Source of the DNA: Atribacterota bacterium | Lineage (GTDB): Bacteria; Atribacterota; Phoenicimicrobiia; Phoenicimicrobiales; Stramentimicrobiaceae | NCBI GenBank assembly: GCA_040767965.1 | Contig: JAXGNR010000004.1 | Location: forward strand, 320,001-384,000 | Direction of reading: 5' to 3' | DNA: 64,000 nucleotides | Shown: one piece after another, positions 2,738 to 37,339 of the stretch | Numbering within the stretch: position 1 is the first letter of the stretch | Layout of the letters: each line of letters starts with the position of its first letter | The notes under the pieces: model-generated | The model's database searches: none | What the model was told of the DNA's origin: nothing | The model's input: the letters and a program-made list of their open reading frames with translations, nothing else | Program-made: the position numbers and the translations under genes

Positions 2738-2779
2738 CAAATGATATGCTCTCACTGTTATTTAAATTAAAACTAGGGT

Positions 2780-2823
2780 AAAATGTTTTAGGGCGAGTAG
2801 AAATACTTGCCCTAAAACATTTT
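2780..2823 (+). terminator. Long stem-loop between tupA and tupB (partial terminator or mRNA stabiliser)
   Basis: 20-bp arms AAAATGTTTTAGGGCGAGTA / TACTTGCCCTAAAACATTTT with a GAAA loop. Confidence 0.7.
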
Positions 2824-2857
2824 AATTAAAGATAAATATTCTGGTTGAGGTGTTAAG

Positions 2858-3550: not shown

Positions 3551-3565
3551 TAAAAGGTAACAGAA

Positions 3566-4585
3566 ATGCCTGCAGAAAAATTATTAAAAGTAAAAAATTT
3601 ACAAAAAATATATCAAGAAAGAATTGTATTGGATATTGATGATCTTTATTTTGAAAAAAGCAAAATATATGCAATAGTTGGCCCTAATGGCTCAGGCAAA
3701 ACTACCTTGATTAATATTTTAAATCTTTTAGATAAGCCCACATCGGCTCAACTATTTTTTAAAGGAAAAGATGTTTTTAAATCTTCCTCTTCTGAGATTC
3801 TTAAAATTAGAAGGCAAATGACTCTAGTGCATCAAAGACCTTTTTTGTTTCAGACTACTGTCTTTAATAATGTTGCTTATGGTTTGAAAATTCGCGGTTA
3901 TTCTGTTGAAGAACAACAAAGAAAGGTCAGGGAAGCTTTAAAGATAGTCGGATTGCTTGAATTTGAAAACAGAGATGCCCAAAAACTTTCTGGAGGAGAA
4001 GCTCAAAGAATAGTAATTGCCAGATCTCTGGCCGTAAACCCGGATATTCTTTTTATGGATGAGCCTACTTCTAATATTGATCAGCGTTATATAGATGTAA
4101 TTGAAAGGATAATAAGGAAGATAAACCAAGAAATAAAAACAACAGTTATTTTTACTACTCATGATCTTTCTCAGGCTTATCGTTTGGCCGATAAAATAAT
4201 ATCTTTACTAGATGGAAAAATTGTAAGCCATGTTCCTGAAAATATTTTTAAAGGGACCATTATCCATGAGAATAACCAGCAATGGTTGAGTGTACATGAA
4301 AAAATAAAATTTTCAATAGTTACCCATAAGTATGGTACTGCATACATTTATATTGATCCCAGCGATATAATCTTATCATGTGAACAATTTTCTTCCAGTG
4401 CCAGAAATTCCTTTCAAGGGAAAATTGTCTCTATCTCTGAACAAAATAATTTAATAAGACTAGCAGTTGATATTGGGGTACACTTGGTAAGTGTTATTAC
4501 AAAAGAATCATTTAAAGAAATGAATTTGAATATCGGTAGAAAAGTTTGTTTGACTTTTAAAGCCTCTGCGGTAAAATGCTATTAA
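3566..4585 (+). CDS. tupC: Tungstate ABC transporter ATP-binding protein with C-terminal TOBE domain
   Basis: GPNGSGKT, LSGGEAQR and DEPTS; C-terminal SSARN...LTFKASAV TOBE motif. Confidence 0.88.
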   Translation: MPAEKLLKVKNLQKIYQERIVLDIDDLYFEKSKIYAIVGPNGSGKTTLINILNLLDKPTSAQLFFKGKDVFKSSSSEILKIRRQMTLVHQRPFLFQTTVFNNVAYGLKIRGYSVEEQQRKVREALKIVGLLEFENRDAQKLSGGEAQRIVIARSLAVNPDILFMDEPTSNIDQRYIDVIERIIRKINQEIKTTVIFTTHDLSQAYRLADKIISLLDGKIVSHVPENIFKGTIIHENNQQWLSVHEKIKFSIVTHKYGTAYIYIDPSDIILSCEQFSSSARNSFQGKIVSISEQNNLIRLAVDIGVHLVSVITKESFKEMNLNIGRKVCLTFKASAVKCY

Positions 4586-20443: not shown

Positions 20444-21037
20444 ATGAAAAAAAACAGTTACCTTTTCCTCATTATCCTTTATTTGTTTTTATTGTTTATT
20501 TTCACTGGATCCTCTATAGCACAAGAAGAAAAGCTTCAGACTGAATCCAGCTGGTCTTCAATAGACGATGTTTTTATTAAACAGGAAAAAAATTTTTTGT
20601 TAAATCCTATAGATGTAGATGGTTCCATTAAAATTGGATTTACAGTGAAAGAAGTGCAAAAGATTATGGGTATCCCTGATAAAATAGATATAAAAAAATA
20701 TATCTACTATTATCGAAAATCTCCTGTTTATTTTAACAATGAATGGAAAGTTCAATCATGGGATAACCGGTATGGAAATTTACGGGTAACCCATGAGATG
20801 AGCAAAATAAGCTTAGGTGCACATATATCAGAGGTATTTAAAGAAAAAGGGTTTCCACAAAGAGCAATAAAATTAAAGAACAGTTACCAACTGGAATATT
20901 CTGATTCTACAATCTATTTTAATCACAAATGGAATGTAGAAGCTATTCAGGAAAAAAATAAACCTGCTTACCGGTCAGATAGGGAAAATATGTCTTTAGA
21001 CGATTTTTTAGAAGAATACCATCAATTTTTAGAGTAA
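20444..21037 (+). CDS. Exported protein with two SmpA/BamE-like repeats
   Basis: Signal peptide; IKIGFTVKEVQKIMGIP and ISLGAHISEVFKEKGFP repeats. Confidence 0.55.
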   Translation: MKKNSYLFLIILYLFLLFIFTGSSIAQEEKLQTESSWSSIDDVFIKQEKNFLLNPIDVDGSIKIGFTVKEVQKIMGIPDKIDIKKYIYYYRKSPVYFNNEWKVQSWDNRYGNLRVTHEMSKISLGAHISEVFKEKGFPQRAIKLKNSYQLEYSDSTIYFNHKWNVEAIQEKNKPAYRSDRENMSLDDFLEEYHQFLE

Positions 21038-21075: not shown

Positions 21076-22653
21076 TTAAAAAACATTTATTTTACCATCT
21101 AAAAAGGTATCTTTACTTAATTGTATTTGTCGAAAAATCTGCATAGCTACCGGAAGACAGTTCATTATATCACTAGCAATCATGCCGTCTTCACCTTTTT
21201 TTCTGGCAGCAAGATCTCCTGCAAATCCGTGAATTAAAACGGCTTCTCTGACAGCTGATTCAAGAGGGAGACCTAAACTGAATACGGCAGCGATAATCCC
21301 TGTAAGCACATCGCCCGAACCAGCAGTAGCCATGCCGCTGTTACCAGTCAAATTGAGAAAAACTTTGCCTTCTGGTGTGCATATTAGCGAATGGGCTCCT
21401 TTTAAAACAGCAAAACAATTATGCTTTTGGGTAAAATCTTGCATAAAGTTAACAGCTTCCACTTTAATTTCATCAGTTGATTTTTTAAGCAGTCTTGACA
21501 TTTCCCCTATGTGTGGAGTTAAAATAGTTGGAGAAATACGATTGTTCAGAATATTGATATTCTCACTTAACACTGTTAAGGCATCTCCATCAAGTAAAAG
21601 AGGTTTTTCAATATCAATAATCAATTTTTTTATTAATTGCCTGGTTTCATGTTCAACAGACAACCCCGGCCCCAATACCACCATATTTGATTCTGCTGAC
21701 CTTTTTAGCAATTCATCATAATTTTCAAGAGCAATAGTACCGCTATTGGTTTCTTTTTGAGGCAAATACACAACCTCTTTAGCCTGTGTACCAATATAGG
21801 GGACAATAGAAGATGGTGCGGCTAAGAGTGAATATCCGCCACCACATTTTAAGAAAGATAATGATGAAAAAACAGGAGCTCCAAGATAGTTTCTAGCACC
21901 TGATATAAAAAGAGTTTTACCAAAAGTACCTTTATGGCCATTTACTGGCCTTGCAGGCAGAGGAGAAGGGGTATTTAGTTCTATTTTCAATTCTTCTTTA
22001 TTATATAAAGCTGGAGGGAAAGAAATATGAGAGATATGTAATTTCCCACAATAAGAAAAACCCGGGTAGAGGAGATTGCCAATCTTAGGTAGGCCAAAAG
22101 TTATAGTATGATCAGCCTTTATGGCAATTCCCATTATTTGACCATTATCTCCGTTAATACCTGAGGGTATATCTATACTGATTACTGGTTGTTTATGATG
22201 GTGATTAATAAAACTGATAATCTGATAATAGATTCCTTCGATATCTTTTTGTAAACCGGTACCAAACATTGCATCAACAATAATACTGTTTGGGTTAATG
22301 TTTGCTTTTGCTGTTTCCAATACTATTTTGGTAAAGACAGGTATTTGTAATTTCTTTACTATTTCCCAGTTTTTTAAGGCAGCTCTTCTATATTTAAGAG
22401 GATCATTAATAATAAATAAGCATACTTTTGCGCCACATGAATGTAATTTCCTGGCTAAAACCAGACCATCTCCGCCATTATTGCCAGTTCCGCAAAAAAT
22501 AGAAAAAGAAGTATTTTTGATTTTAAAATATTCAGCTATTACCTGATATGCTGCCAAGCCGGCGTTTTCCATTAAAATATCTTCAGTAAAGCCATATTTA
22601 TTGATAGCCTCCTGATCCATATTTTGCATTTCTCTAACAAATGTTAATTTCAT
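21076..22653 (-). CDS. nnr: Bifunctional NAD(P)HX epimerase/dehydratase
   Basis: LMENAG, GNNGGDG, DAMFGTG, DIPSG, GPGL, TPHIGEM and GSGDVL. Confidence 0.95.
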   Translation of the reverse strand: MKLTFVREMQNMDQEAINKYGFTEDILMENAGLAAYQVIAEYFKIKNTSFSIFCGTGNNGGDGLVLARKLHSCGAKVCLFIINDPLKYRRAALKNWEIVKKLQIPVFTKIVLETAKANINPNSIIVDAMFGTGLQKDIEGIYYQIISFINHHHKQPVISIDIPSGINGDNGQIMGIAIKADHTITFGLPKIGNLLYPGFSYCGKLHISHISFPPALYNKEELKIELNTPSPLPARPVNGHKGTFGKTLFISGARNYLGAPVFSSLSFLKCGGGYSLLAAPSSIVPYIGTQAKEVVYLPQKETNSGTIALENYDELLKRSAESNMVVLGPGLSVEHETRQLIKKLIIDIEKPLLLDGDALTVLSENINILNNRISPTILTPHIGEMSRLLKKSTDEIKVEAVNFMQDFTQKHNCFAVLKGAHSLICTPEGKVFLNLTGNSGMATAGSGDVLTGIIAAVFSLGLPLESAVREAVLIHGFAGDLAARKKGEDGMIASDIMNCLPVAMQIFRQIQLSKDTFLDGKINVF

Positions 22654-22682
22654 TTTAGACCTTTAAGTCATTATTTTAATAA

Positions 22683-22907
22683 TTAATGATTGCATGATGA
22701 ACAGTTTTTACTGTGACAGGAAGCACAGTCTGAAGTATTGGTTGACAAATTGTTTCCTTTACATAAACCAAATCCGTCAAAAATTCTCTTAATGTGATGA
22801 CTACCGCATTTATCACAAATAAAATCACCTTTTTCCATATCTTTTATTGATGCCTTTATTTCTGTTTTAGCAAAACAATCCTGACATTGAAAAGTATAAT
22901 TAGGCAT
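22683..22907 (-). CDS. FmdB-family zinc-ribbon protein
   Basis: MPNYTFQCQDC...CDKCGS; Cys-rich tail; GGAGG RBS. Confidence 0.85.
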   Translation of the reverse strand: MPNYTFQCQDCFAKTEIKASIKDMEKGDFICDKCGSHHIKRIFDGFGLCKGNNLSTNTSDCASCHSKNCSSCNH

Positions 22908-23063
22908 ATCTTAACCTCCAAAGTTAAAGAAAGGGAAATCATACCGCTTAATTTATAATTTTATATTAACTAAAACAAAAATACAATATTTAGAAAATAA
23001 TAGTAAAATCATCTTATTATATTGTGTTTTACAAGAAGAACCACAGTCATTTTTTATAAAAAT

Positions 23064-23079
23064 AGGCATTTGATTTGCT
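23064..23079 (+). promoter_or_regulatory. Possible sigma54 (-24/-12) promoter upstream of the giant gene
   Basis: AGGCAT-TTGAT-TTGCT with GG-N10-GC spacing. A sigma70-like TTGCTA...TAAAAT overlaps it, so the call is ambiguous. Confidence 0.4.
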
Positions 23080-23146
23080 AACCAGGATAAAGATAGTAAA
23101 ATAGTATTATAATAATTATATTTTTAAGATAAGCAGGAAAAGAAAA

Positions 23147-26100
23147 ATGCAATTATCAAAGGATGATCAAGAATTAAATTTAACCTCAATTGATATCTTA
23201 CAATATTTGAATAAAGATGAAATCCTATTAAGGCATGGCTTAAAACAAAAAGATATTACCGTAATAAAAAAAGATGCTAATTTTAACAAAACCTTAAATA
23301 ATCTGATACAACAAAAAAAATTACAGGCAAAAGATATTTTAAGTTTAGTTATTGGTAAATTGAGGGAAATAGATGAAAATCTTAATACAAAGCAATGGTT
23401 AGAAATGATTTATTATTACTGTCAATTTTTGTCTTTTCCTGAAACAAGCCCGGCAGTTCAAAATATAAATCTTCCCACGAAAAAAATATTTACAATTTTT
23501 CTTTTATTTTATCGATTCCTGGTAATCGAACCTCATCAGCTTCAGAAGAAGTATTCTGCTTCCAGTTATCCTTTATTATTTTTAACTGAGAAAGAAATTT
23601 CTTCCCTGGAACAGCCTGCTGAATATCAAAAATTTTTAGAGGCATATAATAGATTGTTTGTATACGAAATGATGGTCTTAGGAAAAGAGATATTTGGGTA
23701 CAATACATGTGATCATATCTGTGGTGTGCATACTCTAGCTTTAAGCCTGGCGAGACAATTAAAAAGCCAGGGACTGTTTCTGGATTTAGGTATCATATCC
23801 GGAGCCGCTGCCGGACACGATATAGGTAAATATGGGTGTAAAAGCAACGAACAGGAAAAAGTTCCATATTTGCATTATTATTACACTGATATCTGGTTTC
23901 AGAGGCAAAATATTCCTTATATAGGCCATATTGCAGTTAATCATTCTGTTTGGGATCTGGAATTAGAAAACCTTTCTTTAGAGTCCTTGATATTAATATA
24001 CTCAGATTTTCGGGTAAAAAATATTCCCCAAACACAGGAAATGTATATTTATTCCTTACAGGATTCATTTCGAATAATTTTAGAAAAATTAGATAATTTA
24101 GACAGACAAAAAGAGAGAAGGTACAAAAGAGTTTTTGCCAAATTACAGGATTTTGAAGAATTTTTGATTGAAAAGGGGATAGAAACCTGTCCAGTCCTTT
24201 CTGATAACACAAAAAAACAAAAAACAAAAAACAGTGTTTCCTATTCTTTACTGCATGGTGAAGAAATTATTAAACACCTCAAGCAACTGTCTTTAGAGCA
24301 CAGTTTTAATTTAATGTATCAGCTGAGAAATGAGCCTGCTGTTAATTCAATATTAGAACTTGCTCGAAGTGAAAAGAATTGGCAGAATATTCAGGATTAT
24401 TTAAGAATATTTTCTGAATATTCAACTTACCTTAATCAAAAAGAAAAATTATTCACTTTAAGATTTTTATATGAAAAACTAATTTTTCCGGAAGAAGGAA
24501 TAAGAAGAAGAAGTGCTAAATTAATTGGCTATTTAATTGCCGGTTTTGATGAAAAATATCGTAAAGAGATACCTGAAAATGTAGAGATAATATCATCTAA
24601 AATAAAAAGCTATAACTTGTTAGGGAAATATATTCAAGAAATTATTGAGCCTAAACATAAGGTTCCTGAAATGATTTATGCCAGAGTAAGAGAAAATCTT
24701 GCTTTTGTATTTGAGGCCTTGTTTGAGAAAAGTCAGGGACGTCAAATAAGGGATTTCAGAAGGGTTATCAATGGAATATATAAAAAGTATACTTATAAAC
24801 AGATTTCTAAAGATAAGGCAGTTTGTCTATTACAGGCTATCAGATATATCCCGTTCTTATTAAATGAAAATATAGATTCTGTTTTAGTAGATTTTCTAGA
24901 CCAATTTATCGAACATAAAGATGATATTTTGAGATTGAATTCCCTCTCTGTTATTGAAGAAATTATAGATAAATTACCGGAAAAAGATCCTTTTCGAGAA
25001 AAATGTCAATTTCTATTAATTAATAAACCTGACAAATCTGTTTTCCCTGTAGAAAATTATCTATGTTACAAATTGCTAACCAAGACAAAGAATAATCAGT
25101 ATTTGCCTAAACGTTTTCAAGAGTATTGTCAGCAGGACAAAGAGAAAATTGATCGAATGTATTTAACCAATTTAAAAACATCTACTGACCCTATAATCAA
25201 AAAAATACAAATTGACATACTTCTAGAAAAGGCAAAAACGGACAGAAAAGAAGCTGTCTATACAGCTCTGCATTTTTGTAATATCCTGAAAGTAAGTAGT
25301 CATGAATCTATCAGAAATTATGCTGGTAAATCCTTAATTAAAATTATCCCATATTTAAATATGGAACATAAAAATGATATTGCAATTGAATTGTTGAAGG
25401 CTTTGGAGATTGATGACTATCAGTATACAAAATATATTCCATATTATTTAGGACAATTAATTCCTTTCTTGCCGCCTGGTGAGATAGATGAATTTATTGC
25501 TGAATTTGAGCAAAAAACAAAAATATCCGATCAGTGGATCAGTGTTCTGCTTTTGAGAACAATTGCTGTGGCTATTAGCAGGTATGCTCCTTATCAAAGC
25601 AGATATAATGAAAGTTCAGAGAAGGTAGAAGATAGATTAAAGAGAATGTTAGGGATTTTGATGAATGGTTTGGTACATCAGGATTCACCGGTAAAAAGGA
25701 TTACTTCACATGCTATAGGCAGAGAGATATTTGCCTCAGAGCATCTCACTCTCAGGGAAAAGAGTGTTATTTTACGTTTTATCGCAAAAAAATTATTAAA
25801 TCTATTGTCCTCTATCTCAATTCAGGACTCACTATTATTTTTTACAAATACTGTTGCATTGCACCAGATATATGTATATATGTCTGATTATATCTTTTTT
25901 GAAGGCTCCTTAAAGCTGGCAGTTCCTACCAAAGTGGCCTTTTTCCCAGGGTCATTTGACCCTTTTTCCACCAGTCATAAAGAAATAGTAAAAGAAATTG
26001 AAAAGATGGGAATAGAAGTATATTTGTCTGTAGATGAGTATTCCTGGTCTAAAAGAACCCAACCTCATCTTTATAGAAAAAATTTAATTAATATGTCAAT

Positions 26101-28144
26101 TGCTGATGAATTAGATGTTTATTTATATCCTGAAAATCTGCCTAATAATATTGCAAATCCTACTAATCTTAAATTACTGAAAAAGCAGTTTCCATTTTCA
26201 AAAATATACATTGTTGCCGGAAGTGATGTATTGTTAAATGCTTCAGCTTATTCAGAAAGCAATAATATCGATTCTATAATGCATTTCCCTCACATTATCT
26301 TTAGCCGAAAACCTTTTCATTTAAGCAGTGAACAAAAAGATAAATATTTATCAATAATGAATAAAATAAAAGCAGAAGTTATTCAATTAAATTTAGAAAC
26401 TCCTTTTGAAGAAATAAGCTCAAGCCTGATAAGAAAAAATATTGATAATCACCGGGATATAACCGGGTTAGTTGATCCTCTTGCAGAAAGATTCATCTAT
26501 CAACACAGTTTATACCAGCGTGAACCCCAATTCAAGGCAACACTGCAAAAAGTTTTTACTGAAATAGAAATAATAGAGAAATTTAAAGATTCTTTTATCC
26601 AATCTTTAGTTGAAGATATATTCCCTGATAATTTGAAGTCGGAAGTGGAAAAATGCTTAAAATTATTAAGGAAAAAACAAAATCCCCGGCTCATTATATT
26701 AAAAGATACTCTCAAAAAAGAAAGGAAACTTGGTTTTGCAGCAGTACACTGGGTAAGGTCAAGTTTGTTTTATCACGAATTTCAGGATAACAATATTACC
26801 CAGTTTATAAGAGATTATGCTACTGGGAGAACTATTATCATAGACGGAGTTTTTATAACAGATAGCATCAAAGATGAACTACATTTAAACCAGCTAAGGC
26901 AAATCATATTAACCCAGACGCTTACTTTTTGTGTGCAAAAAGATTATGATTATGCCATTTTTAAAAATATGATTCCTTTAATGGACAACAAAGGCTTAGT
27001 GGAATTAATGGAGTTGTATGGTTTTACAGAGATACCGGTCAGCAATAAGAATTATCCTATTCTGGCAGTTGATATCCGTAAGCCTAGCACAGTAAATCTG
27101 GATATAGAAACTCTTATAAAAGAGCCTTTTGTAAAGAATAAGAGAATAATTCAGGCAATATACAATGCTCGTAAAAGTATGCTGAAGGCGATGACTCAAT
27201 TATATCCAGGTCATTTGTTGATACCTTTTAATATGGATATTGTTAACCAGTCAATTGTAAAAAAAGTATGTCATGAAAATGGTGTTTCGATTGTACAGAG
27301 CGAAGTTAATGCATCAGGCCCATTGATGTGTGTTCCTTTTGGAAAAATATTACATAAAATGGTTGTCCCCAATACAGTTACAAAGTCATTACATACTGAT
27401 AAAATATTTACACCAGATATGCAACATTTTAAAATCGATGCATTTTCTAATTATATGAGTTTGGAAAACCAGGTAAAAATGATCAAGTCTTTCAATAAGC
27501 CGGTACTATTAATTGATGATTTACTGCACAAAGGATATCGCCTTAAGGCAATCAGTCCTCTTTTACAGAAAGAAAAAATAAAAGTTCATAAAATTATTGT
27601 TGGCTTAATATCAGGAAGAGGAAAAGAATTGGCCATGATGCAAAAACGTTCTGTAGATAGCGCTTATTTTATTCCTAATTTACGAGTATGGTTTAATGAA
27701 AGTGATCTATGCCCTTTTATCGGAGGAGATGGTTTGTTTCGTCAGGAACCGGATCAGGGGAATTTGGTTCGTTCAATCAATATGATTTTACCATATGCCT
27801 ACCCAGTCTTTCTAAAAGGAGTTAAATCAGAGACTATTTATCGTTTTTCTGAAATCAGTATTGAAAATGCCATCAATATTATTCTGGCTTTAGAAGAAGA
27901 ATACCAGGAAATCTATCATCGCAAGTTAACATTAGGACATTTGGGAGAAGTATGCATCTATCCCAGGTATCCTGATCAGGGTAAAAGCATTCACTATGAT
28001 CTTGCCCTGACTGTATCTCTTTACCTGGAAAACAATCTGGAATTATTGCAGAGAAGCTGGGAAAGAGAAAAGAAAGCAAAAAAGGAAGATATGCTACTTT
28101 ATCCCAATTCCCAGGAATTTTCTAATAGAAAGGAGGTTTTATGA
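23147..28144 (+). CDS. Giant multidomain protein: HD domain, HEAT-like repeats, NadD-like nucleotidyltransferase, GNAT-like segment, PRTase-like C-terminus
   Basis: H190..GHDIGK(H224/D225)..H243..H266..D287; FPGSFDPFSTSH (G935-H944), IVAGSD, ISSSLIR (~aa 1090); VLLIDDLLHKG (aa 1453-1463). Confidence 0.75.
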   Translation: MQLSKDDQELNLTSIDILQYLNKDEILLRHGLKQKDITVIKKDANFNKTLNNLIQQKKLQAKDILSLVIGKLREIDENLNTKQWLEMIYYYCQFLSFPETSPAVQNINLPTKKIFTIFLLFYRFLVIEPHQLQKKYSASSYPLLFLTEKEISSLEQPAEYQKFLEAYNRLFVYEMMVLGKEIFGYNTCDHICGVHTLALSLARQLKSQGLFLDLGIISGAAAGHDIGKYGCKSNEQEKVPYLHYYYTDIWFQRQNIPYIGHIAVNHSVWDLELENLSLESLILIYSDFRVKNIPQTQEMYIYSLQDSFRIILEKLDNLDRQKERRYKRVFAKLQDFEEFLIEKGIETCPVLSDNTKKQKTKNSVSYSLLHGEEIIKHLKQLSLEHSFNLMYQLRNEPAVNSILELARSEKNWQNIQDYLRIFSEYSTYLNQKEKLFTLRFLYEKLIFPEEGIRRRSAKLIGYLIAGFDEKYRKEIPENVEIISSKIKSYNLLGKYIQEIIEPKHKVPEMIYARVRENLAFVFEALFEKSQGRQIRDFRRVINGIYKKYTYKQISKDKAVCLLQAIRYIPFLLNENIDSVLVDFLDQFIEHKDDILRLNSLSVIEEIIDKLPEKDPFREKCQFLLINKPDKSVFPVENYLCYKLLTKTKNNQYLPKRFQEYCQQDKEKIDRMYLTNLKTSTDPIIKKIQIDILLEKAKTDRKEAVYTALHFCNILKVSSHESIRNYAGKSLIKIIPYLNMEHKNDIAIELLKALEIDDYQYTKYIPYYLGQLIPFLPPGEIDEFIAEFEQKTKISDQWISVLLLRTIAVAISRYAPYQSRYNESSEKVEDRLKRMLGILMNGLVHQDSPVKRITSHAIGREIFASEHLTLREKSVILRFIAKKLLNLLSSISIQDSLLFFTNTVALHQIYVYMSDYIFFEGSLKLAVPTKVAFFPGSFDPFSTSHKEIVKEIEKMGIEVYLSVDEYSWSKRTQPHLYRKNLINMSIADELDVYLYPENLPNNIANPTNLKLLKKQFPFSKIYIVAGSDVLLNASAYSESNNIDSIMHFPHIIFSRKPFHLSSEQKDKYLSIMNKIKAEVIQLNLETPFEEISSSLIRKNIDNHRDITGLVDPLAERFIYQHSLYQREPQFKATLQKVFTEIEIIEKFKDSFIQSLVEDIFPDNLKSEVEKCLKLLRKKQNPRLIILKDTLKKERKLGFAAVHWVRSSLFYHEFQDNNITQFIRDYATGRTIIIDGVFITDSIKDELHLNQLRQIILTQTLTFCVQKDYDYAIFKNMIPLMDNKGLVELMELYGFTEIPVSNKNYPILAVDIRKPSTVNLDIETLIKEPFVKNKRIIQAIYNARKSMLKAMTQLYPGHLLIPFNMDIVNQSIVKKVCHENGVSIVQSEVNASGPLMCVPFGKILHKMVVPNTVTKSLHTDKIFTPDMQHFKIDAFSNYMSLENQVKMIKSFNKPVLLIDDLLHKGYRLKAISPLLQKEKIKVHKIIVGLISGRGKELAMMQKRSVDSAYFIPNLRVWFNESDLCPFIGGDGLFRQEPDQGNLVRSINMILPYAYPVFLKGVKSETIYRFSEISIENAINIILALEEEYQEIYHRKLTLGHLGEVCIYPRYPDQGKSIHYDLALTVSLYLENNLELLQRSWEREKKAKKEDMLLYPNSQEFSNRKEVL

Positions 28145-29412
28145 TTTACTACTATCGATATTCCAATAAATTACTTTTTTCAAAGTATAAAATAAAGAAA
28201 CTGGTAACAATAAAAAATGATGATCCGGTTGTCCACCAAAAAAAATTTCTCTATTATCTGGATAGGCAAGAATGGGGAAAAGTAAGTCCTAAAAGCGTCT
28301 TGATTCACCCTGGTCAGTTGAAAGGACAGGAAGATATAAGTATATTAAAAAATACTTATGGTGATAATGATGATTTTGACTGTTTACCTGGCTGGATTAA
28401 AAAAAAGATAAAAGATAGAGAAATTGGCTTTATAAATTATAATCATCCTGGATGGAAGAAAATTCTAAAATGGGAAAAACCGGCCAGGTGGAAGGTAAAT
28501 ATTATTGGTTTAGGTAATGTAGGTGGTACTTTGTTGACTGCATTGCGCTTGATTGGAAGTGAAAAAATTACTGAAATAGGCATTTTTGATACAAATGAAC
28601 AAGCTCTTTCGCGTTGGGAACAAGAAGTAAATCAGATAGTAGATAGCTCCTCAAAAATTGACATGCCTAATGTAAAAATAATTAAAGAAAATAAAATATT
28701 TGAAGCAGATATGGTCATATTCTGTATTTCTATAGGGGTTCCTCCACCAGGACAAAAAATAAAAGATGTTAGAATGATGCAATTTACTGCCAACTCAGGA
28801 ATTATTAATATCTATGCCCAACAAGCTAGAAAGTTAGGTTATAACGGTATTTTTGCAGTTGTTTCCGATCCTGTTGATTTATTGTGCCAAAGTGCTTTTT
28901 TAACAAGCAATCGGAACGAAAAAGGCATTTTGGATGGGGAAGGTCTTAGCCCTGATCAAATTAGAGGATTTGGATTAGGAGTAATGCATGGCAGGGCTGT
29001 TTATTATGCAAATAAAAATAAAAAGACCAGACTTTATCTTGAAAAAGGCCGTGTATTTGGCCCTCATGGAAAAGGGCTGGTTATTGCAGACAATATGGAA
29101 GATTACAACCATCAACAATCAATTGTTTTATCTAAAAAGGTACTGCAGGCAAATATTGCCATCAGAAGAACTGGTTTTAAACCATATATTGCACCGGCTC
29201 TTTCTTCTGGAGCTTTGTCAGTACTGGCTTTAATAAGTGGAGACTGGCATTATAGTGCAGCTTTTCTGGGAGGAATATTTTGGGGTGCTAAAAATAGACA
29301 AACCTCTCTCGGTTTGGAGTGGGAGCAGAACAGCATATCAACGGATTTATTTGAAAGAATAAACAATAGTTATCAATATCTTAAAAAATTAGCCCAAAAT
29401 TTGGAAAAATAA
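28141..29412 (+). CDS. Divergent lactate/malate dehydrogenase-fold protein with N-terminal extension
   Basis: IIGLGNVG, GIFD, VVSDPVD, GLGVMHGR and FGPHG; AAGGAGG RBS and ATGA overlap with the upstream gene. Confidence 0.8.
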   Translation: MIYYYRYSNKLLFSKYKIKKLVTIKNDDPVVHQKKFLYYLDRQEWGKVSPKSVLIHPGQLKGQEDISILKNTYGDNDDFDCLPGWIKKKIKDREIGFINYNHPGWKKILKWEKPARWKVNIIGLGNVGGTLLTALRLIGSEKITEIGIFDTNEQALSRWEQEVNQIVDSSSKIDMPNVKIIKENKIFEADMVIFCISIGVPPPGQKIKDVRMMQFTANSGIINIYAQQARKLGYNGIFAVVSDPVDLLCQSAFLTSNRNEKGILDGEGLSPDQIRGFGLGVMHGRAVYYANKNKKTRLYLEKGRVFGPHGKGLVIADNMEDYNHQQSIVLSKKVLQANIAIRRTGFKPYIAPALSSGALSVLALISGDWHYSAAFLGGIFWGAKNRQTSLGLEWEQNSISTDLFERINNSYQYLKKLAQNLEK

Positions 29413-29480
29413 AAAAATAACATATAATAAAAAAACTAAAAATAAAAAACTTGTCATAAAGGAATTGTCAGGAGGGGAAA

Positions 29481-30020
29481 ATGAAAGCTTTATTGATAAT
29501 TGATGTGCAAAATGATTTTATTAGAAATGGTTCTCTTGCAGTCAACAAAGCTGAAAGGATTATTCCAATTATAAATAAGTTATTACAAAAGTTTGATTAT
29601 AGTATGGCCTCTAAGGATTGTCACCCCCAGGAATCTGTTCATTTTAAAAAATGGCCACCTCATTGTGTTGCAGGTACAACAGGGGCTGCTTTCCCTTTTG
29701 ATTTAGATCAAGAAAAAATAAATCAAATTCTATATAAAGGAACCAGCAATAAAGATGATGGATATTCAGCATTTGAGGCCAACAATATAAACTTGATAGA
29801 ACATCTACAAGAAAAAGGAATAACTGACTTATACATTTGTGGAATAGCATTAGAGTTTTGCGTGAAATCCACAGTTCTGGATGCCTTAGAAAAAAGACTT
29901 AATGTCTATATGTTAAAAGATGCCATTGCTCCTTTTTCTGAAAAAGAAGAAGAGATTAAACAGTATTATTCTGAATTGGAAAATGCAGGTGCAAAAATTA
30001 TTTCCTCAACAGCAGTATAA
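29481..30020 (+). CDS. pncA: Nicotinamidase/pyrazinamidase
   Basis: IIDVQNDF..GSL, KDCHP, WPPHC, KG...YSAF and GIALEFCV. Confidence 0.88.
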   Translation: MKALLIIDVQNDFIRNGSLAVNKAERIIPIINKLLQKFDYSMASKDCHPQESVHFKKWPPHCVAGTTGAAFPFDLDQEKINQILYKGTSNKDDGYSAFEANNINLIEHLQEKGITDLYICGIALEFCVKSTVLDALEKRLNVYMLKDAIAPFSEKEEEIKQYYSELENAGAKIISSTAV

Positions 30021-31782: not shown

Positions 31783-32358
31783 CTATGATAAAAATTTTCT
31801 GCTGCCAGGCTTAACCGGCTTACTGCCTTGCTGGCAAAGTGGACAGTCTTTTTCATCATATATTTTAATATCAAGCTGTATTCCGCTAAAAACAGGTACG
31901 CCAAGGTCTTCATGCTTTGATCTTCTGTCTACAATACAGGCTACACCCAGGACATTCCCTCCTAATTCAGAGACTAAATTTTTCACCTCTAAAGTAGATT
32001 TACCAGTGGTGACAACATCTTCACTTATCAAGATATTAGATCCTTTCTTTACTGTAAAACCTCTTCTGAGAGTAACTGTATTGTCAACCCTTTCAGTGAA
32101 AATTGTTTCCACATTCATTTGTCTACCCATTTCATATGAAGTAATAATTCCTCCAATGGCTGGTCCCACTATCAGATCAATTTTCAAATCACTTATTTTT
32201 GCACATATTATTTTCATTATCTGCTCCGCATGCCAGGGGAACCTTAAGGCTTGTGCACATTGCACATACTGACGGGAATGCTTGCCTGAAGAAAGCAGAA
32301 AATGGCCTTCTAGTAAAGCACCAGTTTCTTTCAAAATATTCAAGATTTTGGTATTCAT
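31783..32358 (-). CDS. pyrE: Orotate phosphoribosyltransferase
   Basis: GHFLLSSGKHS, EDVVTTG and KPGSR. Confidence 0.95.
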   Translation of the reverse strand: MNTKILNILKETGALLEGHFLLSSGKHSRQYVQCAQALRFPWHAEQIMKIICAKISDLKIDLIVGPAIGGIITSYEMGRQMNVETIFTERVDNTVTLRRGFTVKKGSNILISEDVVTTGKSTLEVKNLVSELGGNVLGVACIVDRRSKHEDLGVPVFSGIQLDIKIYDEKDCPLCQQGSKPVKPGSRKFLS

Positions 32359-32383
32359 ATTATTCTCCTTATTATCCTTACTA

Positions 32384-33289
32384 TTAAATTATCCCAACTA
32401 TTTCTTTAAGAGTAGAGATTTTGTTTGTTTCTAAATAATTATATAAGTCTATAAGTATTCTTTCACCAATGTTAGGATTAATAAAATTTGCTGTTCCTAT
32501 CTGGACAGCTTGTGCTCCTGCCATCAGGAATTCTAAAACATCCTCTGCACTCATAATTCCTCCAATACCCATTACCGGGATAGAAATATTATGCGATACT
32601 TCATGTACCATTCTCAGGGCAATCGGTTTAATACATGGACCTGACAATCCTGCATAGGTATTCTCAAAAACCTTTCTTTTTTGGATTACATCTATAGCTA
32701 AAGACCTGACAGTGTTTATTAGTGAAACAGCATCAGCCCCTTCTTCCTGGCACACCTGGGCAATTCTGACAATATCATCGGCATCGGGACTTAATTTTAT
32801 CATTAAAGGGCAGTTTACAACATTTCTGGTTTCTTTAACTACTTCACGGGTAGTATTTTCTTTAATACCAAAAGGAATATTATTTTCCTTTATATTGGGA
32901 CAGGAAATATTTAATTCAATCATATCTACTTTTTCCAGGGATATTTTTTCACACGCTGAAATATAATCATTTAAACTGGAACCACTTATATTTATTACAT
33001 GTACCAAGTTTAGTGATTTCATATAAGGAAGCTCTTTTTGTATAAACTGCTCAATTCCTGGATTTTCCAATCCTACACTATTCATCATTAAAGACTCAGT
33101 TTCCCAGACACGGATACCTTTGTTGCCGGATCTGGGTTGCAGAGTTAAACCTTTGCTGACAATTCCGCCTAATTTTTCAATTTCGTACAATTCAGCATAT
33201 TCACGACCAAAACCGAAGGTACCTGAAGCCATAAAAAGAGGGTTTTTTAATAAAAAATTTAAAAAAGGTAATTGTAAGGGGTTATTCAT
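32384..33289 (-). CDS. pyrD: Dihydroorotate dehydrogenase B, catalytic subunit
   Basis: ASGTFG, NSVGLENPG, ELNISCPN, KLSP and GLSGP. Start set at MNNPL. Confidence 0.93.
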   Translation of the reverse strand: MNNPLQLPFLNFLLKNPLFMASGTFGFGREYAELYEIEKLGGIVSKGLTLQPRSGNKGIRVWETESLMMNSVGLENPGIEQFIQKELPYMKSLNLVHVINISGSSLNDYISACEKISLEKVDMIELNISCPNIKENNIPFGIKENTTREVVKETRNVVNCPLMIKLSPDADDIVRIAQVCQEEGADAVSLINTVRSLAIDVIQKRKVFENTYAGLSGPCIKPIALRMVHEVSHNISIPVMGIGGIMSAEDVLEFLMAGAQAVQIGTANFINPNIGERILIDLYNYLETNKISTLKEIVGII

Positions 33290-33989
33290 AAAAGATATCC
33301 TTTCCCAGAAAAACAGGTCCATCTTTGCATACTCTAGCATTACCATTTTTTGTTTGACAGGAACAAACCAAACAAGCCCCTACTCCGCAAGCCATTCTCT
33401 TTTCCAGAGAAAGATAATGTTTGATATTATAATTTCGGGCTTTTTCTTCTATTTTTCGCATCATGATTTCTGGTCCGCAACTGAAAATTATATTATATTT
33501 CTGATATGGAATATAATCTGTAATATATCCTCCATAGTTTATCTCCAGAAGATTGGATAATTTTTGAAAATAAGATTCGAAAACATTTTTTTGCTGTAAA
33601 CCTAAGAAAACATCAATGTTTTTAACTTCAGGATTACCTTGTAATTTTTTTAAAGCATAGAAGAGGGGGGCAATACCTGTTCCTCCTCCAACCAAAGCTA
33701 GATTTCCTGATATATTTGTGGGGAATCCGTTACCATATGGGCCATTAATAGTAATTTCATCACCAATTCTACATTTTGCTAAAACAGCCGTTCCTTTGCC
33801 GCTTATGCAGTAGAGGAAGGTAACTCCATCCTCCTCTAAATCATAAACACTCATTGGCCGGCTTAAAAACATTTCCTGACTATTTTTTCTAATCATAAAA
33901 AATTGCCCTATCTGAGCATGGTATTTACCTGCAATTTTTAAGAGATAATAATTATTTTTCAAGGGTTTATTAAAAGAAACTAGCGCCAT
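33282..33989 (-). CDS. pyrK: Dihydroorotate dehydrogenase electron-transfer subunit
   Basis: RPMS, GPYGNGF, GGGTGIAP, CGP and MACGVGAC..C...C.DGPVF. Confidence 0.93.
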   Translation of the reverse strand: MALVSFNKPLKNNYYLLKIAGKYHAQIGQFFMIRKNSQEMFLSRPMSVYDLEEDGVTFLYCISGKGTAVLAKCRIGDEITINGPYGNGFPTNISGNLALVGGGTGIAPLFYALKKLQGNPEVKNIDVFLGLQQKNVFESYFQKLSNLLEINYGGYITDYIPYQKYNIIFSCGPEIMMRKIEEKARNYNIKHYLSLEKRMACGVGACLVCSCQTKNGNARVCKDGPVFLGKDIFYE

Positions 33990-34837
33990 TGGCTTATATC
34001 CTTTTTCATTTTCAAAACTTTTTCTCTGGTAATAGTAACAAAATTGTCTGTTTCATCAAGACCTTTATGAGCAGCAATTATCCCACGAGATGAATTGATA
34101 ACTGCATTAATATTATTTTTAAATATTCTGGAAAAGTCTTTCCCGGTACCTCCCTGTGCTCCATAGCCAGGAATAAGGAAAAACGTGTGCCGGGCTACGT
34201 TTTTTATTTTGATGAATTCTTCAGGGTAGGTTAATCCTACCACTGCCCCAATGGTACTATAATTGTACTTACCTCTAAATTTCTCTCCCCATTCCTCAAT
34301 TTTCCTGGCAACATGCAGGTAAAGAGGTTGTCCTTCAACTACTAATTCCTGGAAGTCTTGTGAGCTTGGATTAGAAGTTTTTGCTAGGATAAATAATCCT
34401 TTTTCTCCATTATCTAAATATGGGAAATAAGGTTCAATAGCATCTAGTCCCATATATGGGTTGATAGTAAGAAAATCTGCCTCAAAATCACCTGAAAAAT
34501 GACCTTGCGCATATTCTTGTGCAGTAGAAAAAATATCACCACGCTTAACATCGGCAATAACTATATTTTCTTTTTTTCTAATATGTGCCAGGGTTTTTTG
34601 ATAAGCCTGAAGTCCCAGGATGCCATGTGCTTCATAACAGGCAATTTGTACTTTATAACAAGCAGTAATATCCGAAGTGTTATCAATAATAGCTTTATTA
34701 AAAAGAAATAATTTGTCTGCAATACTTATGTCCTGTTTACAGGCAAGAGAATCTGGAAGATAATCTAATCTGGTGTCAAGCCCTATGCAGACCGGCCCTC
34801 TTTCTTTTACTAATTCATAAAGTTTATCTATTATCAT
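33980..34837 (-). CDS. pyrF: Orotidine-5'-phosphate decarboxylase (long subfamily)
   Basis: CIGLD, DVKRGDI, KTSNP, LIPGYGAQGG and NSSRGI. Confidence 0.95.
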   Translation of the reverse strand: MIIDKLYELVKERGPVCIGLDTRLDYLPDSLACKQDISIADKLFLFNKAIIDNTSDITACYKVQIACYEAHGILGLQAYQKTLAHIRKKENIVIADVKRGDIFSTAQEYAQGHFSGDFEADFLTINPYMGLDAIEPYFPYLDNGEKGLFILAKTSNPSSQDFQELVVEGQPLYLHVARKIEEWGEKFRGKYNYSTIGAVVGLTYPEEFIKIKNVARHTFFLIPGYGAQGGTGKDFSRIFKNNINAVINSSRGIIAAHKGLDETDNFVTITREKVLKMKKDISQWR

Positions 34838-35987
34838 ATTTAATTTTTCCTTCTTTAAAAGTCATCAAAATTTTTCCATATACCACTTGTCCTAAAAAAG
34901 GTGTATTTCCTGCCTTAGAATGTAGAATATGCCTATTTATTTCATATTTTTTACTTAAATCGATAAGAACAAAATTAGCTTTAGAATAAATTTCAGAAAG
35001 AAAACTGGTTTTTTCAATCCCTAATAGTTTTGCTGGTTTTTCTGACATTAATTTACTCAGCAATTGAATACTGATATTGTATTTTTTGAAAAGAGTATAC
35101 ACAAGAGAAAAAGCGTGATCGAACTCAATTAAACCCCGGGCACCTTTAAGTTTATCTTCACTGCTATGAGGAGCATGATCTGTAGCAATAATGTCAACAG
35201 TTCCATCCAGCAGTCCTTCCAGTAAAGCTTCAGCATCTTCTTTCTTGCGAAAGGGGGGATGTACCATATAATCCAGATCATAGCTGAACAGATGATGTGG
35301 TGTAACTTCACAGCTAAATTCCAATCCTTTGCTTTTTGCCTTTCTTATAATCTGAAGGCTGTCTTTTTTGCTAACATGGCAAATATGTAAATTACCTCCG
35401 TATAATTTAAGTAACTCCAAATCCCGGGTAATTATTTCTGTTTCAGGTTCACAATGAGTGAGTATTTTAAAGTTATACTTTGTTGATGCCTGCAATGCTT
35501 TTATCATAGTATTTTCATCTTTTATAGGGATCCCATCATTGGAAAAAAGTCGGGTATAGGTAATCATTTTCTCAAAATCTACCAGATTAGTGGTATCAAG
35601 TCCATAAGTAACTGCTGAAATGGGGATTACATTACACAATCCCAGTTTTTGTGCCTTGTTTATAATATAATTGATTGTTTCTGGATTATCGCAAACAGGC
35701 AGAGTATTTGCCATACAGCAAATGGTGGTAAAACCGCCGGCCAAAGCAGCCTGTTGTCCACTTTCCAGATCTTCCTTATAAGTATATCCGGGATCTCTTA
35801 AATGGCAATGCAAATCTATAAAAGAAGGAAGTAGACCCCAATTCTCACCTGGAATAATTTCTGTGATAGATTCATTATTGACATTATTATCTTCCAGTAC
35901 TATAAAATTACCCTTCTTAATTAATATACTGGCAATCCTATCAGTATCTGAATCAATTATTCTAATATTCTTTAATAATACAGACAT
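34824..35987 (-). CDS. pyrC: Dihydroorotase
   Basis: DLHCHLRDPG, CEVTPHHL and ATDHAPH. Confidence 0.92.
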   Translation of the reverse strand: MSVLLKNIRIIDSDTDRIASILIKKGNFIVLEDNNVNNESITEIIPGENWGLLPSFIDLHCHLRDPGYTYKEDLESGQQAALAGGFTTICCMANTLPVCDNPETINYIINKAQKLGLCNVIPISAVTYGLDTTNLVDFEKMITYTRLFSNDGIPIKDENTMIKALQASTKYNFKILTHCEPETEIITRDLELLKLYGGNLHICHVSKKDSLQIIRKAKSKGLEFSCEVTPHHLFSYDLDYMVHPPFRKKEDAEALLEGLLDGTVDIIATDHAPHSSEDKLKGARGLIEFDHAFSLVYTLFKKYNISIQLLSKLMSEKPAKLLGIEKTSFLSEIYSKANFVLIDLSKKYEINRHILHSKAGNTPFLGQVVYGKILMTFKEGKIKYDNR

Positions 35988-35996
35988 TTCAATTAC

Positions 35997-36419
35997 CTAA
36001 ATTCTTGTTTTTTCATGACAATATTCACATTGATATTCCCCAATAGCAGGGTTAACCAGAGTAAACTCGATATCGCCAACATTTTCAACAGTGCTAATGC
36101 ATCTTGGATTTTTACATTTTAAAATACCATAGACCTTTTTGGGTAGTTCAAGTTTTATCTTCTTTTTCCTTTGTCCGTTTTCTATAATATTAATGGTGAC
36201 TCCTGAGTCTATTAATCCTAAGACAGTTAAATCAAGATAAATATCATTTTCTATTTTGATAAGGTCTTTTACTCCCATTTTAGTAGAAGGAATGTTCCTA
36301 AGCAATACTACGGTATCATCTAATTTATCCAGGCTTAACTGGCTAAATATTTTATATCCATTTCCAGACTTGATATGATCTATTACAATCCCTTTTTTTA
36401 ATTTGGAAACATTTATCAT
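35997..36419 (-). CDS. pyrI: Aspartate carbamoyltransferase regulatory subunit
   Basis: [14 protein letters not shown] and CKNPRC...CEYC. Confidence 0.93.
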
Positions 36420-37339
36420 AAATTATCTCCTTTCCCAAGTATCTTGGATATCAAAGCCATTCTAATAAACATTCCATATCTTGCTTGTTTGAAGTAAACT
36501 GCTCTTTCATCATCATCAACTTCAGCGGCTATTTCGTTAACTCTTGGCAGAGGATGCATAATGAGCATATCTTCATTTGCCATTTTTAAAATTTCATTGT
36601 TTAAGATATAAGAGTCTTTTAAACGCAAGTATTCCTGCTCACTAAAAAATCTTTCTTTTTGGATTCTGGTCATATAAAGTATGTCCAATTTGCCGATACT
36701 ATTTTCCAAAGAATTTGTTTCCTGATAGGATTCTTTACCAATTCCTTCTTTTATATAATCAGGAATACGTAATTCTTCTGGAGATATGAATACAAAATTA
36801 ATATTCGGGTATCTGGAAAGAATTTTAGTTAAAGAGTGGGTAGTTCTGCCAAACTTTAAATCTCCGCATAATCCAATTGTAAAATTGCTGATTGAACCTT
36901 TTAATTGTTTGATAGTCAGTAAATCTGTTAAGGTTTGGGTTGGGTGCTGATGACCGCCATCTCCGGCATTTATGACAGGTACCCTAGAATGTTTTGAAGC
37001 AAGTTTAGGTGCTCCTTCTTTTGGATGTCTGATAATAATTAAATCAGCATAACCAGAAATTGTCTGTATTGTATCTACTAGACTTTCTCCCTTAGAAACA
37101 GAAGAAGACATTGCATCTGCAAAGCCAATTACCTGTCCTCCTAATCTCAGGATAGCCGATTCAAAACTAAATTTTGTTCTGGTAGATGGTTCATAAAAGA
37201 GAGTAGCAATTAAATTGCCCTTGCAAAGGTTGGAATAATCATGTTCATTTTTTATAATTTCTGTTGCATAAGAGATCAGATCATCTATTTCCTCGAAAGA
37301 AAAATCATTTACTTCAATTAAATGCTTTCCTTTTATCAT
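36416..37339 (-). CDS. pyrB: Aspartate carbamoyltransferase catalytic subunit
   Basis: [19 protein letters not shown] and HPLPR. Confidence 0.96.

Follow-up and report, generated by a model that had tools for sequence, protein, structure and literature searches.

Does a single very long protein encoded in the genome of an Atribacterota bacterium make and trim nucleotides, or does it only sense them? The question is raised by one gene in a stretch of 64,000 nucleotides (assembly GCA_040767965.1, contig JAXGNR010000004.1, positions 320,001 to 384,000 of the forward strand), which is called the window in the following. The gene lies at 23147..28144 (+) of this window, and its product combines an HD phosphohydrolase domain, a HEAT-like solenoid, a nucleotidyltransferase of the NadD/PPAT class, a GNAT-like fold and a phosphoribosyltransferase-like (PRT-like) module. 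An earlier note on this DNA suggested that the nucleotidyltransferase-, GNAT- and PRT-like parts may sense ATP/NAD, acyl-CoA and phosphoribosyl pyrophosphate (PRPP), respectively, and control the HD hydrolase via the HEAT scaffold. In its strict form, this model makes the HD domain the sole catalytic output and the other parts pseudo-enzymes. We tentatively prefer another answer, to which we give a probability of about 0.4: the protein may be the large subunit of a conserved enzyme system of anaerobes that makes and trims nucleotides or dinucleotides. It would then be neither a housekeeping NadD nor a hydrolase run by dead sensor domains.

The gene is one open frame of 1665 codons. The G+C content of the window is 28-37%, and at about 31% G+C we calculate that stops should occur at about 8% of random codons, so that chance cannot account for a frame of this length. 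AlphaFold models and Foldseek matches give the order of the parts as N-terminal helices, HD domain, HEAT solenoid, NadD/PPAT-class nucleotidyltransferase, GNAT-like fold, PRT-like module and C-terminal helices, and this domain-wise comparison of folds bore out the domain list of the earlier note. For modelling with AlphaFold2 (AF2), two halves (residues 1-925 and 926-1665) were folded separately, each with a 53-row alignment, and the domain limits were taken from the secondary-structure and confidence tables of the models. The model of the N-terminal half reaches a predicted local distance difference test score (pLDDT) of 87.5 and a predicted template-modelling score (pTM) of 0.85 and is all-helical from 372 to 919. 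The model of the C-terminal half (pLDDT 82.6, pTM 0.84) contains a NadD/NMNAT fold, the GNAT-like and PRT-like parts and a helical tail. The Foldseek results comprise the best approximately 50 matches per half and are dominated by NadD in the C-terminal half and by solenoids in the N-terminal half. Over the whole protein, the sole Pfam match is CTP_transf_like (residues 932-1097). NCBIfam gives weak matches to HGPRT (E 0.0046) and HDIG (E 0.14), and a sequence search of PDB gives NadD (E 1e-4) and the hypoxanthine phosphoribosyltransferase (HPRT) 4rqa (E 0.013). All of the folds are known singly, and the proteins are kept in databases under generic names. A literature search returned nothing on this architecture, the fixed PRT loop, the gene cassette or the domain-loss series described below, and a term search of the text of PMC9503650 found no mention of the architecture.

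Conservation was analyzed in two sets, one of 53 full-length homologues (set 1) and one consisting of the window gene plus 52 genes from other loci (set 2, n = 53); some motif and model counts were taken over 37 family members. The share of invariant columns is highest in the HD domain (24.3%) and the nucleotidyltransferase (19.5%), followed by the PRT-like module (15.0%), the C-terminal helices (10%), the HEAT solenoid (8.3%), the GNAT-like fold (4.0%) and the N-terminus (2.4%).

The nucleotidyltransferase domain passes the cut-off of PF01467 (CTP_transf_like) with 28.9 against 21 bits. Foldseek places it next to NadD/NMNAT structures, e.g. 5lm3 with an E of 2.3e-7 and a TM-score of 0.73 on the target (range 0.64-0.76). 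The NadD model TIGR00482 matches with an E of 7.8e-12, yet the 45.6 bits obtained are far from its cut-off of 112.45, and the other four NadD models, including PRK00071, give 19-39 bits against cut-offs of 150-197. In the HMMER alignments, FPGSFDPFSTSH stands opposite GGTFDPVHYGH of E. coli NadD and FPGSFDPMTNGH of PPAT, and EISSSLIR is aligned to NISATIIR and HVSSSLLK. It had been remarked before that the HxGH motif reads STSH, and this is true for residues 941-944, but a degenerate site does not follow. The TNGH of PPAT aligns to STSH (HYGH in NadD), so the superfamily already allows Thr at the first motif position, and S/TxGH is read in 12 of the 53 homologues. The first position is always Ser or Thr (53/53), the third is Gly in those 12, and the final His is kept in 53/53. 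STSH resembles a mild variant of (T/H)xGH, apparently within the range of active PPAT/NadD enzymes; it departs from the canonical motif but is compatible with activity. Besides [S/T]941 and H944, the residues G935, D938, [K/R]969, R977, G1025, D1027, Y1035, S1091, S1092 and R1096 are kept in all 53. The invariant Y1035 is found opposite the Trp of the NadD segment TWYEY, which we take to stack on the pyridine ring. The motifs align, the signature residues are kept throughout and the HD domain is only slightly richer in invariant columns, so that nothing in this domain suggests degeneration. Judged by its residues, the domain at 926-1130 is probably a transferase in working order, with a phosphorylated acceptor that bears a ring.

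For the HD domain, the earlier note had regarded the metal ligands as complete, and this is supported by the homologues. All six proposed ligands are invariant in set 1 (53/53) as well as in set 2 (53/53). The H...HD...D motif of the HD superfamily (PF01966) is present as H190, H224-D225 and D287, to which H243 and H266 are added. This six-ligand H..HD..H..H..D pattern is typical of two-metal HD enzymes. With the Pfam HD model (PF01966), 31 of the 37 members give a match at E ≤ 1, the lowest E being 1.2e-5, and the domain of the window protein scores 14.8 bits, below the cut-off of 22. The nearest curated models are from NCBIfam: the DVU_1551 NTP transferase family matches the HD region in 35/37 members (best 8.6e-6), TIGR00295 in 34/37 and HDIG in 15/37.

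As a fragment, the PRT-like module matches HPRT 4rqa with an E of 8.5e-4 over 120 residues. In this alignment, PLMCVPFGKI is opposite PLVCVGILKG, NKPVLLIDDLLHKGYR is opposite NKDVLIIEDILETGTT, and DDLLHKGYR is opposite EDILETGTT. The strand VLLI and the acidic pair DD of the PRPP loop are therefore present, and the TGTT of HPRT is changed to KGYR. The departure of the loop (DDLLHKGYR, 1457-1465) from DDxxxTGxT had been seen correctly, and it is common to the family: D1457, G1463 and R1465 are found in 53/53 and K1462 in 52/53 sequences. By these counts the PRPP loop is altered and yet fixed across the family. The nearest named clusters in the Atlas are PRT-domain proteins (score 0.93), and a first Atlas search with the C-terminal part returned only the family's own unnamed clusters.

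Foldseek against PDB finds the NatD acetyltransferase 4ua3 at rank 21 (E 4e-6) for the GNAT-like fold, and in the viral library approximately 25 named acetyltransferases are among the top 50 matches, with TM-scores of 0.5-0.68 on the target. The stretch that had suggested this fold, with LGFAAV at 1195, IIIDGVF at 1230 and MELYGF at 1288, corresponds to 26729-27025 of the DNA and hence falls into the region proposed (26690-27030). The GNAT-like assignment thus stands on the side of the fold, but it finds no match in sequence, neither in Pfam (E ≤ 1) nor in a PDB profile search, and the cofactor loop is missing. The pyrophosphate loop that binds acetyl-CoA has the motif (Q/R)xxGx(G/A); it is absent from the beta4-alpha3 junction in 37/37 members, and three matches to the pattern lie elsewhere in the domain. 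The GNAT-like fold is also the least conserved of the domains. No support was seen for a role as acyl-CoA sensor, and a structural role is the simplest reading. The HEAT-like units noticed before could be located as PEEGIRRRSAKLIG (448-461), KDDILRLNSLSVI (591-603), SHESIRNYAGKSL (718-730) and QDSPVKRITSHAIG (845-858). The AF2 model shows the stacked helix hairpins of a HEAT/ARM solenoid. The best PDB folds for the N-terminal half are a designed repeat protein, CAND1, SF3B1 and importins (E 5e-6 to 7e-4). There are 69 PDB matches at E ≤ 0.001 for this half, those listed being solenoid proteins, and their global TM-scores of 0.1-0.4 are as expected for flexible solenoids. HEAT (PF02985) is precomputed on some of the homologues. 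All other motifs and residues named in the earlier note, including H944, were likewise found where it had placed them.

The protein belongs to a large family, which is common in Clostridia and Atribacterota. A search at E ≤ 1e-3 gave 811 proteins, which are 915-2914 aa long. The best 120 of these 811 are 43-65% identical to the query, except one partial sequence with 100% identity. Lengths of 1600-1699 aa are found for 117 of the 121 sequences kept, the query among them. A scan of one genome per species confirmed at least 847 stretches; two search patterns fall in one gene, and the number of genes is accordingly about 400 to 850. A profile of the PRT-like module was searched against 1.84 billion representative proteins and gave 425 matches at E ≤ 1e-3, of which 320 also pass 1e-10 and 197 pass 1e-30, each match being a cluster at 50% identity. 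In the best 150 of the 425, the PRT-like module is always the C-terminal part of a protein of the same superfamily or of a fragment thereof. Stand-alone relatives of the C-terminal 535 residues were also sought among proteins of 294-937 aa. This search gave 126 matches, of which the 120 listed all have an E < 1e-72; by their identity, their names and their mostly short contigs they were taken as fragments of the family.

Among the best 150 matches are 17 Met-started relatives of 1050-1310 aa which have no HD domain. In the segments that align, they share 22-41% identity with the window protein; the alignments begin only at its residues ~354-409 or ~647-929. These relatives retain the HEAT, nucleotidyltransferase, GNAT-like and PRT-like parts. 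Forms of this kind include P0304, P0316, P0330, P0332, P0340, P0346 and P0376. Three of the seven clusters that were looked up lie far from the ends of their contigs (28-133 kb). They are a 1301-aa form with a contig of 133 kb, for which a member of the cluster is named from Lachnospiraceae, a 1199-aa form from Tissierellia on a contig of up to 28 kb, and a 1100-aa form on a 34.8-kb contig. These forms are thus not truncations. When 18 HD-less rows (one without a Met start) were aligned, the His of the nucleotidyltransferase was replaced by Asp in 6/18, with decayed GSD and ISST motifs, which indicates that in this superfamily the fold can persist without catalysis. All 18 keep VDD..HKG.R, VPFGKIL..P.T.T, SGRG and W..ES..PF.GGD. 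On the evidence of these alignments, the PRT-like module is the common core of the superfamily, the HD domain is either an addition or a repeatedly lost part, and the transferase can decay. An outlier in the opposite direction is P0374, which bears the HD domain and has lost the PRT loop.

The large gene is part of a conserved cassette. A homologue of the partner gene, which encodes a protein similar to lactate and malate dehydrogenases (LDH/MDH), was found in 50 of the 52 loci that have enough downstream sequence to be assessed. It follows directly in 49 of them, with a gap of -65 to +450 nt, and is located 5.4 kb away in L011. The 4-base ATG/TGA overlap of the two genes in the window is also present in L002, L003, L018, L033, L040 and L056, and the pair is thus often coupled in translation. 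The partner has no Ldh_1_C match, and it reaches only 35-38 bits in LDH/MDH models with cut-offs of 283-339. In an hhalign alignment with canonical LDH, its R211, R285 and H309 occupy the Arg/Arg/His positions, and the invariant M282 is found at the position of the catalytic Asp, so the His-Asp pair of LDH/MDH is not formed. In 45 of 48 assessable loci, those of the two closest relatives among them, the partner is in turn followed by a third gene of ~350 aa with an FMN_red domain and a Cys-rich insert (e.g., L002:14213-15304); searches of PDB and NCBIfam with the product of this third gene gave no useful match. Neither partner nor third gene accompanies the large gene in L029. One assembly carries two copies of the large gene, L050 and L054, of which L054 has both genes and L050 neither. 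In L029, L050 and L054 every catalytic-type residue checked is kept.

Table 1. Location of the large gene, its domains and the neighbouring genes in the window.
Feature	Position	Strand	Basis and details
Whole gene, 1665 aa + stop (P0001)	23147..28144	+	open frame; full-length homologues 1623-1669 aa, 43-65% identity
N-terminal helical region, aa 1-124	23147..23518	+	AF2 helices; 3/124 columns invariant
HD phosphohydrolase domain, aa 125-350	23519..24196	+	putative ligands H190, H224-D225, H243, H266, D287
HEAT/ARM-like alpha-solenoid, aa 351-925	24197..25921	+	AF2 pLDDT 87.5; paired helices 372-919
NadD/PPAT-class nucleotidyltransferase, aa 926-1130	25922..26536	+	GSFDPFSTSH 935-944, ISSSLIR 1090-1096
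GNAT-like fold without acetyl-CoA loop, aa 1131-1330	26537..27136	+	AF2 beta/alpha pattern, pLDDT mostly >85
Type-I-PRT-like module, aa 1331-1550	27137..27796	+	loop VLLIDDLLHKGYR 1453-1465
C-terminal helical region, aa 1551-1665	27797..28141	+	AF2 helices 628-719 of C-half model; 10% of columns invariant (aa 1551-1650)
Gene junction	28131..28144	+	AGGAGG 28131-28136; partner ATG 28141-28143 overlaps TGA 28142-28144 (read directly)
Partner, LDH/MDH-like NAD-binding protein (P0242), 423 aa, 115-aa N-terminal extension	28141..29412	+	Ldh_1_N 35.3 bits, cut-off 27
Nicotinamidase-like isochorismatase	29481..30020	+	Pfam Isochorismatase; NCBIfam nicotinamidase/pyrazinamidase E 1.2e-34, below cut-off
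NAD(P)HX repair gene (YjeF_N + Carb_kinase), divergent	21076..22653	-	Pfam

How such a system might work can be outlined as follows. The nucleotidyltransferase would be active and would adenylylate a phosphorylated small molecule, most likely a mononucleotide. The HD domain would hydrolyse a dinucleotide-type product or wrong by-products, which is how YqeK relates to the NadD with which it is fused or clustered, and the PRT-like module may bind or make a phosphoribosyl compound which feeds or gates the nucleotidyltransferase. The HEAT solenoid would be the frame on which the domains and the redox partners are assembled. A structural role would fall to the GNAT-like fold, and the two redox proteins (LDH-like and FMN-reductase-like) would work with the large protein. 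Here, YqeK is an HD-domain hydrolase of diadenosine tetraphosphate (Ap4A) and of analogues of nicotinic acid adenine dinucleotide (NaAD), and NadD is the adenylyltransferase of nicotinic acid mononucleotide (NaMN). An HD domain acting on the products of a fused transferase has a precedent, since a preprint reports hydrolysis of NaAD, as well as of the cytidine and uridine analogues of NaAD, by the YqeK domain and proposes this domain as the proofreader of NadD (bioRxiv 10.1101/2021.12.01.470718). A further proposal, in our opinion rather unlikely, is that the cassette makes and polices an undescribed dinucleotide-type metabolite or cofactor of anaerobes. In this case an unusual phosphoribosyl mononucleotide would be formed or captured by the atypical PRT-like module and then adenylylated by the NadD/PPAT-class domain. 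Trimming or proofreading of the product would be the task of the di-metal HD domain, and the LDH- and FMN-reductase-like partners would perform or exploit the redox chemistry of this compound, with one HEAT scaffold for all.

Several results weigh against an enzyme system that makes and trims nucleotides. No activity, ligand or product is on record for any member of the family. The HD-less relatives imply that some lineages can do without the HD step. In its sequence, the HD domain is not YqeK-like: the 37 members match 15 NCBIfam families (E ≤ 1), none of which bears the name YqeK, and an HD profile run against PDB (E ≤ 10) returned only 1xx7 (E 0.097) and the unrelated sugar-binding protein 2ioy. 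The PRT assignment is weak. Pribosyltran (PF00156) matches 21 of the 37 members at E ≤ 1, the best with 0.002, always under its cut-off (13.8 against 26.3 bits for the module of the window), and the family profile reaches HPRT in PDB at an E of only 0.64. In an hhalign comparison with the orotate-PRT-like gene of the window itself, no similarity was detected (probability 0.2), and only one PRT-domain protein is among the Foldseek matches listed (rank 41, probability 0.69). In the profile searches of PDB, the HD, PRT-like and GNAT-like modules alike gave marginal or chance rows only. The replacement of the phosphate-binding Thr residues by Lys and Arg also makes PRPP chemistry doubtful. Finally, the third gene is absent here: only 68 bases (29413-29480) lie between the partner and the nicotinamidase-like gene, and no copy was found by tblastn in the 64-kb window. 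Its contribution is accordingly either not needed in this genome or supplied elsewhere.

The sensor model of the earlier note draws on some of the same observations. PRT folds have been reused as sensors in PyrR and PurR, the PRPP loop is without the phosphate-binding residues of TGxT, the GNAT-like fold is without its acetyl-CoA loop in 37/37 members, and the His-to-Asp exchange with decayed GSD and ISST motifs in 6 of the 18 HD-less relatives would suit a pseudo-enzyme. For the PRT- and GNAT-like modules, non-catalytic ligand binding is possible, as the one loop is altered and the other is missing. This part of the model can be kept, in contrast to its claims on the transferase and on the HD domain as the necessary output. 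In HD-bearing members the signature residues of the nucleotidyltransferase are conserved in 53/53, and active PPAT/NadD enzymes appear to have motifs of a similar range. The 17 Met-started relatives without an HD domain keep the supposed sensors and would have no output to control, so the HD domain is not indispensable. An invariance of 4% in the GNAT-like fold is also unlike that of a specific ligand sensor. A design which serves the HD domain is disfavoured when the PRT-like core is kept in every branch, the HD domain is absent in some members and the transferase can decay, and we consider the sensor model unlikely. Quite improbable, in our estimate, is a fused two-step salvage of pyridines, in which the PRT-like module makes NaMN or nicotinamide mononucleotide (NMN) from the base and PRPP, the NadD-like domain adenylylates it and the HD domain proofreads in the manner of YqeK, the protein standing in for PncB/NadV and NadD. 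The best relatives of the nucleotidyltransferase in fold and sequence are indeed NaMN/NMN adenylyltransferases, the partner is a NAD-type Rossmann protein, and nicotinamidase-like and NAD(P)HX repair genes flank the cassette in this lineage. However, these NAD-related flanks are restricted to 2-3 of the 59 loci and the NadD equivalog model is reached with 45.6 instead of 112 bits. In addition, the known pyridine PRTs are type II enzymes, and the module found here is type-I-like with an altered PRPP loop.

A reversible switch by protein nucleotidylylation, as in GlnD/GlnE or Rel/SpoT, could explain why the partner is so tightly and almost universally linked. The nucleotidyltransferase would add AMP to a protein bound to the HEAT solenoid, which might be the LDH-like partner, and the HD domain would take it off again; the PRT- and GNAT-like parts would read metabolites. 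GlnD likewise unites nucleotidyltransferase, HD and ligand-type domains in a single chain, and HEAT solenoids, to which the fold matches point, are protein-binding scaffolds. Nevertheless, we know of no NadD/PPAT-class enzyme with other than small-molecule acceptors, and an invariant aromatic residue aligned with the Trp of TWYEY, the presumed pyridine stacker, fits a ring-bearing small acceptor. The HD-less relatives would, moreover, have no removing activity, and such a switch is very unlikely in our view. Several database names, finally, suggest a plain nicotinate-nucleotide adenylyltransferase with decorative domains. Homologues are called ‘cytidyltransferase’ or ‘nicotinic acid mononucleotide adenylyltransferase’, and CTP_transf_like is indeed above its cut-off. 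But all five NadD equivalog models remain far below theirs, ~1460 of the 1665 residues lie outside this domain and are conserved, and some relatives without the catalytic His keep the remaining parts. We regard this explanation as extremely improbable.

In comparison with known systems, the nucleotide-making and -trimming enzyme favoured here comes closest to the NadD-YqeK fusions and clusters of Firmicutes and mycoplasmas; in the fusions, an HD phosphohydrolase and a NadD-class transferase are also joined in one polypeptide. The six residues H..HD..H..H..D fit a two-metal site like the di-iron site of YqeK described in the preprint. In the window protein, however, the order of the two domains is reversed and a HEAT solenoid of 575 residues lies between them. 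Its HD domain has no YqeK-named match, its transferase stays far below the NadD cut-offs, and two extra modules (GNAT-like and PRT-like) as well as two conserved redox partners are added. Bacterial NadD and PPAT (CoaD), members of the nucleotidyltransferase alpha/beta phosphodiesterase superfamily, share the fold with the domain described here, and motifs of the GxFDPx(H/T)xGH and ISSTxxR types can be aligned between them. The domain differs by the SxSH of this protein and most of its relatives and by its position inside a 1665-aa chain. Type I PRTs such as HPRT, as well as PyrR and PurR, have in common with the module a core beta-strand ending in an acidic pair, a Gly-containing loop and a helix. 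In contrast, the module has DDLLHKGYR instead of (E/D)DxxxTGxT, with both phosphate-binding Thr residues replaced by Lys/Arg, its own motifs VPFGKIL, PNTVTK and W..ES..PF.GGD, and a C-terminal helical extension. GlnD and Rel/SpoT resemble the protein in having transferase, HD hydrolase and ligand-type domains in one chain, but the pol-beta-type nucleotidyltransferase of GlnD and the synthetase domain of Rel differ in fold, and ACT or TGS domains are not present here. The partner is like L-LDH and MDH in its NAD-type Rossmann fold and the Arg/Arg/His residues, and differs from them by the Met in place of Asp and by the N-terminal extension.

If the nucleotidyltransferase and the HD domain share one compound, the make-and-proofread idea of NadD-YqeK would be extended to a larger machine. 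If the PRT-like core has a chemistry of its own, a nucleotide or cofactor pathway of Clostridia and Atribacterota may come to light through this cassette. Naturally occurring variants with HD domain, without HD domain and without the catalytic His offer a ready dissection of the functions of the parts. These are long and strongly conserved proteins in a fixed cassette, labelled in databases only as ‘cytidyltransferase’ or ‘NadD’, and the current NadD annotations of the genes are unsuitable for metabolic reconstructions.

The distribution of the family was analyzed in a maximum-likelihood tree with 63 rows, in which L001-L010 and L036 were set against the Bacillota loci; it was a quick run with midpoint root only and several long-branched rows. 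All nine copies from Atribacterota fall into a single clade (support 100), which is nested inside Bacillota beside Tepidibacter and Alkalithermobacter (support 98). This nesting suggests that the cassette may have entered Atribacterota from Clostridia by horizontal transfer. Two further Clostridia-like copies appear among Bacillota, namely L025, from a record titled Lutibacter sp. B2 (Bacteroidota), and L016 from a Calditrichales bacterium. They could reflect either contamination or mis-binning, or a recent transfer.

The genes around the cassette differ between the loci. Among 59 loci, the nicotinamidase-like neighbour was found only in L002 and L003 and the NAD(P)HX repair neighbour only in L001-L003, so that NAD-related flanks on both sides are confined to the lineage of the window and L001-L003. 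A 197-aa open reading frame (ORF) at 20444-21037 (+), without a Pfam match and with NCBIfam matches at chance level, has counterparts of 51-55% identity in L001-L003. In the Clostridium-type loci L021, L023, L028, L034, L035, L037, L051 and L055, a DUF4883 gene is located directly upstream on the same strand; these are 8 of the upstream genes scanned, and they fall into a 9-member cluster. A pseudouridine-synthase gene lies divergently upstream in five loci (L016, L017, L018, L019 and L024).

Known RNA elements were found neither upstream of the gene (22600-23200 of the window, E ≤ 1) nor adjoining it in seven loci. The best matches to the half-sites of a Rex-type redox operator in 53 upstream regions were no better than those in shuffled sequences. 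Between 22400 and 30200, promoter-like sites occur at the level of shuffled controls and are uninformative in this A+T-rich DNA; terminator-like sites number 12 against 3.5 in shuffles (standard deviation 2.0), most of them inside the ORF. An anti-phage defence system was also considered and rejected, as the PADLOC models gave no meaningful match: only ShosT (E 0.0042) was matched over the PRT loop, and none by the partner or the third gene.

Further away in the window, a pyrimidine operon is located at 31783-37339 (-). It comprises the orotate-PRT-like gene, dihydroorotate dehydrogenase B with its electron-transfer subunit, orotidine 5'-monophosphate (OMP) decarboxylase, dihydroorotase and the regulatory and catalytic chains of aspartate carbamoyltransferase. 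Near the left end, a molybdenum/tungsten cofactor riboswitch (1688-1809, 77.6 bits) precedes the genes of an ATP-binding cassette (ABC) transporter at 1916-4585, which consists of a PBP_like_2 binding protein, a permease and a TOBE-domain ATPase and is likely to serve the uptake of molybdate or tungstate.

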